Positions 38,249 to 44,493 of a stretch of 64,000 nucleotides of DNA are shown one piece after another. Each line of letters opens with the position of its first letter. The first letter of the stretch is position 1. The notes under the pieces are model-generated. The model was not told the origin of the DNA. It was given only the letters and a program-made list of their open reading frames with translations, and ran no database searches. Location of the stretch: IMG/VR virus record IMGVR_UViG_2675903538_000004; one strand, 5' to 3'. The DNA comes from a virus (taxonomy: Duplodnaviria; Heunggongvirae; Uroviricota; Caudoviricetes). Both the position numbers and the translations under genes were made by a program.

Positions 38249-39177
38249 ACTTCACCCTCGCTTGTATCGCCAGCATCCACCAGCGGCAATAAAGCCCTGG
38301 CCATCTTATGAACCAATAGTGCATCAATAATGCCAAGCGTATGCCCCGGCTTAATGTTTAATGCCGCCTCAAGGTGACACCTTTCCAGGCCACTTTTCTC
38401 GGCTTGTTTATGATGATCTGGTGTAATAACGTCGCCCAAAACACGGCTAATTCTTTCTCGTAATTGCTGGGTGCCAGCACACTTGATCGCTGTATCGTGG
38501 AGACGGTTAACCAGTTCGCGATAAACATGCGGCTTAATTCGGATACGTTCACCGGTGACGCCCTTTCCTGGTGCTGGCACCGAACTATCCGGAATATCCG
38601 GATAGTTGCCAGCCTCGTAAGCTACCCGCAGCCAGTGCATGAATGTTTCAGTGGACACACAACCACAGTCCACATCGATTTTCCCGCGTTGCTGTTCCAG
38701 CCATTGCCCAAAATCCAACCTGTAAGTCTTACTTTCAAGTTCATCACCATTGAACTCGACTTTCTGCGACGCTATGAGAGCTGATTCGTATTGTTCGCGA
38801 GTGACAACTGACTGGTATTCATCGCTATCAAGGTCACCAATTGGAAGCTCAATCTCACAACAAAAATTGCGCCCAAAGAAAGTGTCTTTTTTGTGGTCTG
38901 AGCCAAAAGCAAAAGTCGCGCATGGTGCCATTAAATTGACACTGGGTAGGTAACAATAACTCATTCCATCAGGCCACCCGCCGCACTTAGGCAGTTCCTT
39001 CACTAACAAGTCGATAAACTTCATTTTTTTATCATCTTTGCAAGCCGCCAAAGCCATTTGGGCAAGTGCCAATACTTCATCTGCCGTATATCCAGCACCG
39101 TGACCATACATTTCGATACGGGAAATAATCTCTGATATACGCTCTTCAGTGATTCTGGTCATTTCTTTTTGCGCCAT
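38245..39177 (-). CDS. hypothetical protein
   Basis: 310-aa ORF, overlapping stop/start with neighbours. Confidence 0.55.
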   Translation of the reverse strand: MAQKEMTRITEERISEIISRIEMYGHGAGYTADEVLALAQMALAACKDDKKMKFIDLLVKELPKCGGWPDGMSYCYLPSVNLMAPCATFAFGSDHKKDTFFGRNFCCEIELPIGDLDSDEYQSVVTREQYESALIASQKVEFNGDELESKTYRLDFGQWLEQQRGKIDVDCGCVSTETFMHWLRVAYEAGNYPDIPDSSVPAPGKGVTGERIRIKPHVYRELVNRLHDTAIKCAGTQQLRERISRVLGDVITPDHHKQAEKSGLERCHLEAALNIKPGHTLGIIDALLVHKMARALLPLVDAGDTSEGEV

Positions 39178-39533
39178 TTCTTTTCACATTCCTTAGTCCA
39201 TTTTTCAATGTTCATTTTGGCAATATCAGTCATTCCATCACCTAAGAAATACTTTTTCCGGTATGTCTTGCACTTAAACCACACTACAACAGCCACCAGC
39301 CAGAAAATAAAAGGCCATACAGCAATACCAACGACAGCCGCGATAAAGCCCAATAGCCATAAATGAAGCTCTCCAACTTCTGTTTCCGGCAATATTCTTA
39401 AAGAATTAAACAGCAGGCTGAACGAATGGTCGTATGCATTGGCAGTATAAGACATGCAATCCATATAATTAAAGTCATAGCCTGCGGCTGCCGCCCATAA
39501 TGGGCGGTCAAGAAAATGTTTTAGTGTCATCAT
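39159..39533 (-). CDS. membrane protein
   Basis: 124 aa with hydrophobic segment LWLLGFIAAVVGIAVWPFIFWLVAVVVWF. Confidence 0.5.
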   Translation of the reverse strand: MMTLKHFLDRPLWAAAAGYDFNYMDCMSYTANAYDHSFSLLFNSLRILPETEVGELHLWLLGFIAAVVGIAVWPFIFWLVAVVVWFKCKTYRKKYFLGDGMTDIAKMNIEKWTKECEKKWRKKK

Positions 39534-39539
39534 ATAAAT

Positions 39540-39929
39540 TTAAGGTTCAGACCAGTTATCTTCAATAGCAATGCTTAATCTTTGTAGCCATTCTGCTAAT
39601 TTCAGCATTGCTTCTCTTTCGCTTAAACCACGAGGAAAATCATCAAGTGAAATTGTTGGCTTGAAGCCCCCGTAATTATCCATTTCAACAGTCAGATTTT
39701 GCTCCAGCACGGTATTCCTTACGCGGCTATTGTGCCGAAGCAAATATACTGAACGTGATTTATTGGTTTTATGGTCAAACTGATATTCGGTAAGTATCAT
39801 CTGGCTTTTGCCATGACTATTACCTCTCCACATACTTACCTCACTTAATAAAACAACTCCATGCGTAGTTGATGATTTTTTCCCACGTAATATAAATCTG
39901 CACTCCGGCAGTAAAACCAAAGCCAACAA
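39540..39929 (-). CDS. hypothetical protein
   Basis: 129-aa ORF. Confidence 0.45.
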   Translation of the reverse strand: MLALVLLPECRFILRGKKSSTTHGVVLLSEVSMWRGNSHGKSQMILTEYQFDHKTNKSRSVYLLRHNSRVRNTVLEQNLTVEMDNYGGFKPTISLDDFPRGLSEREAMLKLAEWLQRLSIAIEDNWSEP

Positions 39930-41927: not shown

Positions 41928-42700
41928 TGGTTGCCTCCTTTGCGAAGCTGGGCAGCAAAGTCAACTAACCACTCAGTCATTTCAACCTTCCCTACCAGAT
42001 CTGAACCAGGGTGCATACAGCAATCACTCTGCGCCGCTTTGAAATCCTTATACTCATATTCTTGGGCCACCAGATTTTTTGCAGCTTCTATAGCAGCATC
42101 CAATCCCTGCGCCCGCACTTCAGCCAGGCATTTGCGAAACTCGGAAACGTACTGTTCGACGCTCATTCCCCAGCTAAGTGGACATTCATTGAATGTTTCG
42201 CCTTCGTGCTCTTCATCAGGTAGCTCTTTGGTAAAGAACTCACGCTCAATGGCGTGGAGTGTGTCAGCAAAACGACGTAAGTTACTCAAACCTACCGTAA
42301 TGGAGAATTCAGGAGCATCACATCCGACGCCCATCTGCTGATAAACGGCGGTTTTGAAGGCCTTAAGCCCCGCATTCTCCGCCACCAGCGCCGCGAGATT
42401 AGTCTCAAGCTCTGCAATTCGACACATAGCATCAATATTTGTGTCCTCCAGGCACTTAATTTCACCAAGCAGCTCCAGTGCAACCTTTGGGTTGAACGCG
42501 GCAACATGACGAGCGTTGTTCTCTGCATTTTTCTGTCCATCAAAGCCGGTCCATTTGATAACGTCTTCACATCGTTCATCACCGGGCGTGTGCACCGCAT
42601 AAGTACCAGTATCCGTCGAAATAAATGCGACCCATTCGTCTGGTGTTGCCTTTTCTGCCGCCTCACGCAGTACCTGATAGTTAATTGTCATTCTCGCCAT
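41924..42700 (-). CDS. hypothetical protein (Ead/Ea22-like?)
   Basis: 258 aa, shares N-terminal motif with 41439-41927. Confidence 0.5.
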   Translation of the reverse strand: MARMTINYQVLREAAEKATPDEWVAFISTDTGTYAVHTPGDERCEDVIKWTGFDGQKNAENNARHVAAFNPKVALELLGEIKCLEDTNIDAMCRIAELETNLAALVAENAGLKAFKTAVYQQMGVGCDAPEFSITVGLSNLRRFADTLHAIEREFFTKELPDEEHEGETFNECPLSWGMSVEQYVSEFRKCLAEVRAQGLDAAIEAAKNLVAQEYEYKDFKAAQSDCCMHPGSDLVGKVEMTEWLVDFAAQLRKGGNQ

Positions 42701-43332
42701 CCTTCACAGTTGTAATCACTACAGCCTTCAAAATCATATGGGCTGTACTGCCAGGTTATTTTTCCGCAATGCGGACAATTCCAACGCACCTTCCCGCTTC
42801 GCGACTTCTTTCTTCTGTTCTGCTCTTCCAACCAGTCAGGCATGACCAAACCTGCGCCCTGAACCATTGTTCTGCGGTTAAATTTATTGATATTGAACGT
42901 CCGGCGCTTTGCTGCATCAGCAATGGAAAATGGCAACCAAACTATTCCTGGTTCGTTTTTGTTGGCGACGCTAAAGATGGTCGCTTTACTGAAGTCATCT
43001 GTTGGCAATCCACCGTGTTGAAGCCAGTAAACATCGTTGCCGTTCCAGCTACCTTTTTTGTAGGCCACATACGCAGTGCAATCTGACTCAATCAGGCTTT
43101 CTGTAGGGATGTACTGGCAATCAACGTGCCACACAGCCATTGCATCCACACTATCGGCACAAACAGGCTGATCGATATCTCGCCCACAATTCCAGGCTTT
43201 TTGGGCTTCTTCCAGCGTGTAAACATGAGCGCGATCGATATCAGAACTGTAACCATTGCCGTTATGGCAATGGAATGAGGCGTTATTACCCACAGTTTCA
43301 CGCAAGCACATCATGTAAAAACGGTTACTCAC
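42688..43332 (-). CDS. hypothetical Cys-rich protein
   Basis: 214 aa, C-terminal CPHCGK..C..C motifs. Confidence 0.5.
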   Translation of the reverse strand: MSNRFYMMCLRETVGNNASFHCHNGNGYSSDIDRAHVYTLEEAQKAWNCGRDIDQPVCADSVDAMAVWHVDCQYIPTESLIESDCTAYVAYKKGSWNGNDVYWLQHGGLPTDDFSKATIFSVANKNEPGIVWLPFSIADAAKRRTFNINKFNRRTMVQGAGLVMPDWLEEQNRRKKSRSGKVRWNCPHCGKITWQYSPYDFEGCSDYNCEGWRE

Positions 43333-43767
43333 TGGATGCCTCCCAGCAAATTTGTCTTATATAAGAACTGTTAACGCGCTTTACTTTCCCGTCGAACTCC
43401 AGTTTCTTTAGACGACGCAAAACGTATGCCGTTTTGAGTGTGCGATATTTATCCCTAAGCCAGTTGGTCACGACGTAAGTCATACAGCGCCCGTGTTCTT
43501 CCAACACCCGAACTATTTCTTCGTCGGTTGGCTTGCTCATTTTGTCGCTCCTTCAGCTTTCTCTACTTTCGCTGCCATGATTTCCAGCTTTTGTGCTGCC
43601 GATGCCGCTAACCTGTGAAATTCTTCATCTGTTTCAACTGGAATTGGTACAAACCTGACACCAATTTGAGCAAGGCTATGCGCCATTTCGAGACTTGCTC
43701 TTAACTCTGCTGGGGATGCTTTATTCAGGCCGACTTCCTCACAAATAACTGATTGCATACGCTCGCC

Positions 43768-44493
43768 CTACTGAATACGCTCAAACTCGATTACCCAAAC
43801 CCAGGGATTAGCACTCCAGCTTTCTTCGCCGTAGATGGATTCCCACAGGCGCTGGAACGCAACCTTGGCCATTGCGAAATCCCCCTTGGGAGTAAGGAAT
43901 GTTCCCGGGTGATCAGGAAGCAAACTTCCAGCAGGCGGAACGCCCTCATCCCTTGCATCGCATTCGCTGATATCGTTCAACCGCTCAACGCGCACGTTGG
44001 TAATTTCCAACAGGATGCGTGATGCCCATCGCGGCATGTGAATTGATGGACGCCACCCACCATCAAACTTTTCATTCACAGTGTGAGGTTTCCAGTCGGC
44101 ATCATCGGGTATCGACCATAAACCGTAATCACCAGGCTTTTGCTCACAACTGGCCCGATAAATCCTTGCTGCGTTCTTCTCATCGCCACGACAAAGGTTG
44201 TCGTTCCAGTCCACACTGCAACCATCTTCATTGCCTAATATCGCCCATGTTTCACGAACCCAAATTCGATCGCCGACGATACCAAAGGGGCAATTGAAAA
44301 CACTGCTTACACCATCAGCCCCGTACCACTGAAAACCTGCACCAATTTCCCTAACCATCACTGGTGCTTCTGGACCAACTTCCGCAGGCTGATTTTTCAT
44401 TATCCGCCGCGTCTGCGTTTTCCTTCCTTCGAGGATGGCTCGGACCATCTCATCGTTGAAAATCATGCCGCGCTCTTTCACTTCGCCTTTCAT
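43768..44493 (-). CDS. hypothetical prophage protein
   Basis: 241-aa ORF, first gene downstream of a C1 operator. Confidence 0.5.
   Translation of the reverse strand: MKGEVKERGMIFNDEMVRAILEGRKTQTRRIMKNQPAEVGPEAPVMVREIGAGFQWYGADGVSSVFNCPFGIVGDRIWVRETWAILGNEDGCSVDWNDNLCRGDEKNAARIYRASCEQKPGDYGLWSIPDDADWKPHTVNEKFDGGWRPSIHMPRWASRILLEITNVRVERLNDISECDARDEGVPPAGSLLPDHPGTFLTPKGDFAMAKVAFQRLWESIYGEESWSANPWVWVIEFERIQ

Follow-up and report, generated by a model that had tools for sequence, protein, structure and literature searches.

In P1, pmgT, pmgU and pmgV are non-essential, both by CRISPR interference (CRISPRi) and by deletion (PMC10695390). Among P1-like phage-plasmids the locus is known from the literature as 'variable region 8' (PMC9603915), and gene exchange between these elements and phages is frequent (PMC10879196). 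A second point of comparison is the exo-xis region of phage lambda, in which Orf63 is pro-lytic and Ea22 is pro-lysogenic and tetrameric (PMC8614690, PMC10869804, PMC10834534); lambda Orf63 also lowers host survival (PMC10869804). We analysed a 64,000-nucleotide stretch of viral DNA (IMG/VR record IMGVR_UViG_2675903538_000004; the window), which is a P1-type phage-plasmid carrying pacAB, lpa, pdcB, doc/phd, humD, hot, pmgV, pap, pmgS and further P1 genes. A block of small, closely packed genes on its minus strand is very probably the pmgT operon of a P1-family phage-plasmid, mosaic in content and partly deleted in reference P1.

Comparison with P1 (AF234172) by blastn aligned window positions 36970-38620 with P1 locus positions 4434-2783, and 43798-46581 with 2784-1. 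In P1 these ends adjoin each other, and therefore P1 lacks exactly the 5177-bp interval 38621-43797, with a 2-bp AA microhomology at the junction. The P1 flanks are 97.8-98.2% identical to the window, and both P1 breakpoints fall inside genes, one for a PmgT-type protein and one for a 310-aa protein. P1 PmgT (309 aa) is identical at 230 of 231 positions to the 241-aa PmgT-type protein of the window up to ...SANPWV, and then continues into an out-of-frame stretch of the 310-aa gene, without the conserved ...NPWVWVIEF C-terminal motif. In Klebsiella, Citrobacter, Pantoea and other genera, PmgT homologues have a length of ~213-260 aa and end in the same motif as the window protein. P1 PmgU, for its part, corresponds to the last 111 residues of the 310-aa protein (107/112 positions identical, counting the stop). 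As the first-pass annotation had supposed, most of the block genes have no P1 orthologue by blastn synteny, and direct P1 orthologues in the same order for every open reading frame (ORF) were not found.

A 300-bp probe spanning the P1 junction was run against phage records and plasmid records, 351 of the latter matching. The probe was intact only in three P1 reference records and in five of the 351 plasmid records; all remaining phage records, and all remaining plasmid records listed, lose the match at probe position 150/151 or match over less than half of the probe. Because pmgT of P1 is chimeric, its pmgU is truncated and the junction is rare, the event is read as a deletion in the P1 lineage and not as an insertion in the window. 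Judged by these alignments, the annotated P1 'pmgT' is a chimera and 'pmgU' a tail fragment, both of them deletion artefacts. No statement of a P1 deletion at pmgT-pmgU was found in PMC9603915 or PMC10695390.

The control region of the block is shared with P1. A 17-mer C1 repressor operator, ATTGCTCTAATAAATCT (44672-44688, minus strand), differs from the consensus at one position and matches P1 Op88/OpmgT letter for letter, in agreement with the near-perfect operator reported at 44672 in the first-pass annotation. The operator lies across the stop codon of pap and also overlaps the pmgT promoters at their -35 region, in the same position as in P1; a monovalent Op88 so placed is the mark of the pmgT/'hea' operon. 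In the window as a whole, 13 C1-operator-like sites were found vs 0.33 expected by chance. The location of the block, which lies on a P1-type backbone with pap on one side and pmgV/hot on the other, was established by blastn synteny with P1 on both sides and by the annotations of P1, P7 and p95JB1A (CP021336), a near-identical plasmid.

From 37886 to 44589, the minus strand holds 18 genes with starts like those assigned by the Prokaryotic Genome Annotation Pipeline (PGAP), at a coding density of ~99%. Neighbouring genes overlap by 1-19 nt at 10 of the 17 junctions, and GGAG/AGGA-type ribosome-binding sites precede most starts, which bears out the earlier description of a packed block of overlapping minus-strand ORFs. 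That description gave the limits of the block as 39159-44493. The block is real, but its limits need redrawing: 43768-44493 is P1's own pmgT, the part absent from P1 is 38621-43797, and leftwards the operon runs on through the 310-aa gene (38245-39177) and pmgV (37886-38248). A search against PHROG returned family matches for all block ORFs bar one overlapping frame (E 1e-24 to 1e-119), and the ORFs are therefore not chance frames; every family matched belongs to the category 'unknown function'. A terminator scan gave no convincing minus-strand candidate inside the block. Promoter-like sites numbered 9 vs 12.8 expected, with no strong minus-strand site within the block, and an Rfam search of 36800-45300 returned no RNA family. 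The stretch 39000-40200 is lower in G+C (~39-40%).

The block divides according to where its relatives are found. A sub-block at 40335-43343 has ~94-98% nucleotide identity, in pieces, to the exo-xis regions of lambdoid and Shiga toxin (Stx) prophages, and records of Stx-converting and other lambdoid phages match it, also in pieces, at up to ~97.6% identity. Pieces of it are present in 3022 of 5426 complete E. coli genomes, at 6745 places, 6036 of them chromosomal and 709 on plasmids. The sub-block at 38621-40330, which contains the front of the 310-aa gene and the genes for products of 77, 40, 97 and 124 aa (the 124-aa one a membrane protein), is almost confined to plasmids of this family, at 337 plasmid places vs 28 chromosomal ones. 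From these two distributions, half of the block consists of lambdoid-shared cassettes and half is specific to the plasmid family. The earlier view that the genes are of the lambdoid early-region type therefore holds for 40335-43343 but not for the left third, membrane protein included. In a lambdoid prophage of E. coli O157:H7, homologues lie between cIII/kil/anti-RecBCD and xis/int, that is, in the exo-xis accessory region, in the order 214-aa homologue, two Ea22 genes, a hypothetical gene, DUF551, ASCH and DUF1382. The homologues keep the order that they have in the block, with the ASCH and DUF1382 genes close by. From the conserved exo-xis cassette, only Orf63 (DUF1382) and Ead/Ea22 are represented; no Pfam signature of orf60a, orf61 or orf73/TraR-like proteins was detected in the block.

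The same arrangement, at 99.7% identity over 6.4 kb, is present in p95JB1A, CP021340, CP028125 (an O26 strain) and CP121349, where PGAP names the genes 'hypothetical', 'ead/Ea22-like', 'DUF551' and 'DUF1382'. This exact version of the block is thus already in public records, and the operon is known, non-essential and hypervariable. In MH422554, RCS47, SJ46 and JL22, 18-70% of the block is covered and the breakpoints lie inside genes.

The first-pass annotation had named a DUF551-like protein, two Ead/Ea22-like paralogues, Cys-rich small proteins and a membrane protein, and each of these was recovered when the genes, all on the minus strand, were analysed in turn. The most promoter-proximal ORF (44503-44589) lies between the Op88 promoters and pmgT; it encodes a hydrophobic 28-aa leader, MNTAFKIIMAAIYFWLFSITFGGIVAHG, behind a CAGGAG ribosome-binding site, and is also present in P1 with no annotated coding sequence there. 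Its product could serve as a leader peptide or else be a small membrane protein. The 5' leader separating this ORF from the pmgT promoters contains a G+C-rich hairpin (44617-44639), with a T-run behind it only on the plus (antisense) strand. The hairpin is kept in P1 with one loop change, and may stop antisense transcription or stabilize the leader.

The full-length PmgT-type protein (241 aa, 43768-44493, phrog_874) shares 230 of 231 residues with P1 PmgT residues 1-231 and may be ASCH-like. Homologues are labelled ASCH in RefSeq. A search with the ASCH model (PF04266) gave no Pfam match for the window protein and, for 19 of 27 homologues, sub-threshold matches only (best E 6e-4). A PmgT family profile matched nothing in the PDB, and the AlphaFold2 model (predicted local-distance difference test, pLDDT, 52.8) was too poor for a fold search. 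Next follows a 73-aa homologue of lambda Orf63 (DUF1382; 43537-43758), with 100.5 bits to PF07131 vs a cut-off of 27 and a match to PDB 8DSB, the nuclear magnetic resonance structure of lambda Orf63, at E 1.6e-23 over 59 residues. The start assigned to this gene by PGAP in p95JB1A is a CTG codon in the window; the upstream ATG gives the 73-aa product, whose residues 11-69 align with lambda Orf63.

A 71-aa protein (43325-43540, phrog_9799) precedes a 214-aa protein (42688-43332, phrog_2457) that is 99% identical to P7 Upf87.6. In the latter, a basic linker connects an alpha/beta region at the N-terminus to a four-Cys zinc ribbon at the C-terminus, and the four C-terminal Cys residues are invariant or nearly so across 32 homologues. 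Homologues at 47-80% identity occur in Yersinia, Pantoea, Pectobacterium, Acinetobacter and a Methyloprofundus metagenome-assembled genome. Its structural model was confident (pLDDT 93.3); comparison with PDB folds revealed no relative (best E 0.31, template-modelling score ~0.1), and comparison with BFVD returned short, unnamed phage proteins only. An old P7 note describing Upf87.6 as a 'putative tyrosine phosphatase' was considered for the 214-aa protein and found unsupported.

Both Ead/Ea22-like proteins match PF13935, a profile of an N-terminal segment and a coiled coil, above its cut-off of 27 bits: protein A (255-258 aa, 41924-42700) with 69.3 bits and protein B (162 aa, 41439-41927) with 112.8 bits. 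By BLASTP the two have in common only the N-terminal INYQxLREAAE motif (12/15 identical). Three small proteins follow, one of 58 aa with a basic C-terminal tail (41263-41439, phrog_13831), a basic one of 62 aa (41078-41266, phrog_1380) and one of 69 aa with four Cys residues (CxCxxC...C; 40867-41076, phrog_926), which together with the 214-aa protein makes up the Cys-rich set. The DUF551 protein (180 aa, 40328-40870) scores 41.2 bits against PF04448 vs a cut-off of 22, over residues 118-176; DUF551 is a portable C-terminal domain. The N-terminal 44-aa module of this protein is common to the 310-aa protein (39% identity) and to P7 Upf89.5.

Among the distal genes, a hydrophobic 27-aa ORF (40248-40331), MSWPEAFTTVGIVMAAALGLYSICRWW, has a strong ribosome-binding site, CAGGAGGTGA, and its ATG shares bases with the stop codon of DUF551 (ATGA); the ORF is an exact fit for an 82-nt 'gap' that has no PGAP annotation in p95JB1A. 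A 76-aa frame at 40248-40478, overlapping DUF551, was rejected as a whole: no family matched it, and gene-like character is confined to its last 27 codons. Further leftwards lie the genes for an acidic 77-aa protein (40012-40245, phrog_3876), a 40-aa membrane peptide (39841-39963, phrog_5525), a 97-aa protein (39540-39833, phrog_1258) and the 124-aa membrane protein (39159-39533, phrog_2638), in which 19-residue Kyte-Doolittle hydropathy reaches a maximum of 2.6. The 310-aa protein (38245-39177) ends in the 111 residues annotated as P1 PmgU; over its last 163 residues it shares 98% identity with the P7 Upf89.5 C-terminus. PmgV (120 aa, 37886-38248) is 100% identical to its P1 counterpart. Beyond the operon, lxr is absent from the window, where 67 bp (36903-36969, between hot and the LexA box/humD region) replace ~696 bp of P1 containing lxr and its flanks; lxr is likewise absent from p95JB1A.

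Searches for function returned little. PADLOC defence models matched 0 families for the 10 block proteins searched. NCBIfam gave no matches for block proteins, two far-sub-threshold ones for PmgV apart. Sequence searches of the PDB found nothing significant for the PmgT, 214-aa, 310-aa and DUF551 proteins or for either Ea22-like protein, and the Orf63 homologue was the sole block protein with a solved-structure match among those searched.

These data are consistent with the following scheme. Leftward transcription from the pmgT promoters, with which the single C1 operator Op88 overlaps, would cover some 18 small, translationally coupled genes. Given the identity of operator and promoters with those of P1, the operon would be silent in the plasmid prophage and switched on early, after C1 inactivation or infection. 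The promoter-proximal half (PmgT/ASCH-like, Orf63/DUF1382, 214-aa zinc-ribbon, two Ead/Ea22 and DUF551 genes) would represent cassettes swapped by recombination with the lambdoid exo-xis accessory region, while the N-terminal half of the 310-aa gene and the genes for the products of 77, 40, 97 and 124 aa, the last a membrane protein, make up the distal part, which would be specific to the plasmid family. In the P1 lineage, a 5177-bp deletion by illegitimate recombination would have fused pmgT codon 231 to the middle of the 310-aa gene, giving rise to the annotated P1 pmgT and pmgU. By analogy with lambda, the genes would most likely be non-essential and modulate, early on, both host physiology and the choice between lytic and lysogenic outcomes; some may have counter-defence roles.

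Other explanations were weighed against this scheme. The first-pass annotation had proposed mosaic acquisition into a P1 backbone, which amounts to a recent gain of a ~5-kb lambdoid cassette downstream of pmgT. Such an insertion would account for the absence of the block from reference P1 and for the ~94-98% identity of its core to lambdoid prophage DNA. Its polarity is wrong, however: the two P1 breakpoints of the clean 5177-bp difference lie inside ORFs that are intact in the window and its relatives, P1 PmgT is without its C-terminal motif and PmgU is truncated; an insertion would have had to build two complete, conserved genes. The P1 junction, moreover, is confined to 5 of 351 plasmid records, the left 1.7 kb is plasmid-specific and not lambdoid, and P7 already has an Ead-like gene and the 99%-identical 214-aa gene at the site. 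We consider a recent insertion very unlikely, and it is already largely refuted. A morphogenetic function, implied by the P1 gene names (pmg, putative morphogenetic) and by the label 'morphogenetic protein' in some database entries, is hardly credible: P1 pmgT, pmgU and pmgV are dispensable in the CRISPRi and deletion work cited above, two of these P1 'genes' are deletion artefacts, and the lambdoid homologues lie in the early-left accessory region and not in structural modules.

Two further explanations concern what the operon does and when. The block might be a dedicated counter-defence or host-takeover island, whose small proteins would inhibit immune systems or essential host processes early. 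The early, repressor-gated expression suggested by Op88, the cassette turnover at a hypervariable locus, the many small proteins and membrane peptides in PHROG families of 'unknown function' and the reduced host survival caused by lambda Orf63 (PMC10869804) would all fit; yet no block protein matches a characterized inhibitor, the PHROG categories name no function, no PDB relative apart from Orf63 was found, and reference P1 grows normally without the block. We regard an island of this kind as possible but unlikely. Alternatively, the genes could be cargo expressed in the lysogen, for superinfection exclusion or defence, from internal promoters active in the plasmid state. RNA-seq assemblies of E. 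coli strains with related elements hold contigs over much of the region, and several of the products are small membrane proteins, a typical form for exclusion functions. Those contigs, on the other hand, carry no strand information, may derive partly from DNA and do not quantify expression; PADLOC returned no matches, promoter-like sites are fewer than expected with no strong one on the minus strand within the block, and the genes are tightly coupled to the operator-controlled promoter. Lysogen-expressed cargo is therefore improbable.

Several points also weigh against a C1-controlled pmgT operon of exo-xis type. The RNA-seq contigs give no proof of a transcript running from PpmgT to pmgV, and P1 annotates further promoters downstream, near upfM, so that internal promoters are possible in the block. 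The PmgT-type protein is, by sequence, weakly linked to ASCH. The functional analogy draws on two lambda proteins only, Orf63 and Ea22, and roles for the block genes in P1-like elements are assigned by analogy alone; in PDB sequence searches, the Ea22-like proteins found no match for their C-terminal domains, the solved lambda Ea22 C-terminal domain included.

The main value of the deletion reading lies in a correction of annotation. Reference P1, the template for annotating P1-like phage-plasmids, is atypical at this locus, and the 'foreign island' that natural P1-like elements seem to hold is in fact the normal state. Cassettes continue to pass between plasmid prophages and integrated lambdoid prophages, Stx prophages included, and the locus is an example of this. 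As a natural deletion, P1 offers a convenient comparison with full-length elements for the roles of exo-xis-type genes. None of these findings would be unexpected to specialists; the feature is real but ordinary.

Set beside the pmgT-pmgU-pmgV segment of reference P1 (NC_005856 / AF234172), the window has an identical operator, an identical PmgV and essentially the same first 231 PmgT residues. P1 differs in lacking 38621-43797 and in having a 309-aa chimeric pmgT and a remnant pmgU; the window in turn is without lxr. P7 has the same Op88 operator, there annotated Op(hea), at the same position between pap and pmgV/hot, and its locus is the 'hea' operon. Behind that operator stands a different gene mix, including a mosaic PmgT (Upf86.8). 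Upf87.6 is 99% identical to the 214-aa protein of the window. Upf88.3 is Ead-like and has only the N-terminal motif in common with the window Ead/Ea22 proteins, and Upf89.5 joins an N-terminus identical to that of the window DUF551 protein to a last 163 residues 98% identical to those of the 310-aa protein. Judging from such composites, recombination seems to use conserved N-terminal modules as joints, both the 44-aa module and the INYQxLREAAE start of the Ea22 genes. P7, RCS47, SJ46, JL22 and MH422554 thus have other cassette combinations than the window and do not differ from it in kind.

A broader proposal, which we put forward with considerable doubt, is that the Op88 operon is the P1-family functional counterpart of the exo-xis region, a repressor-gated early cassette, open to exchange, by which host defences are disarmed or the lytic/lysogenic outcome is set, with P1 a natural deletion mutant that hides it and the 214-aa zinc-ribbon protein a new class of effector. 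The lambdoid exo-xis region (orf60a-orf63-orf61-orf73-ea22 and variable downstream genes; PMC8614690, PMC10869804, PMC10834534) is an early, repressor-gated, non-essential block of small genes, as the window block would be too. The two have in common an Orf63/DUF1382 homologue, Ead/Ea22 proteins with variable C-termini, DUF551 and near-identical DNA segments. They differ in setting: the exo-xis genes belong to a pL operon between exo and xis, whereas the window block lies under P1 C1/Op88 on a plasmid prophage.

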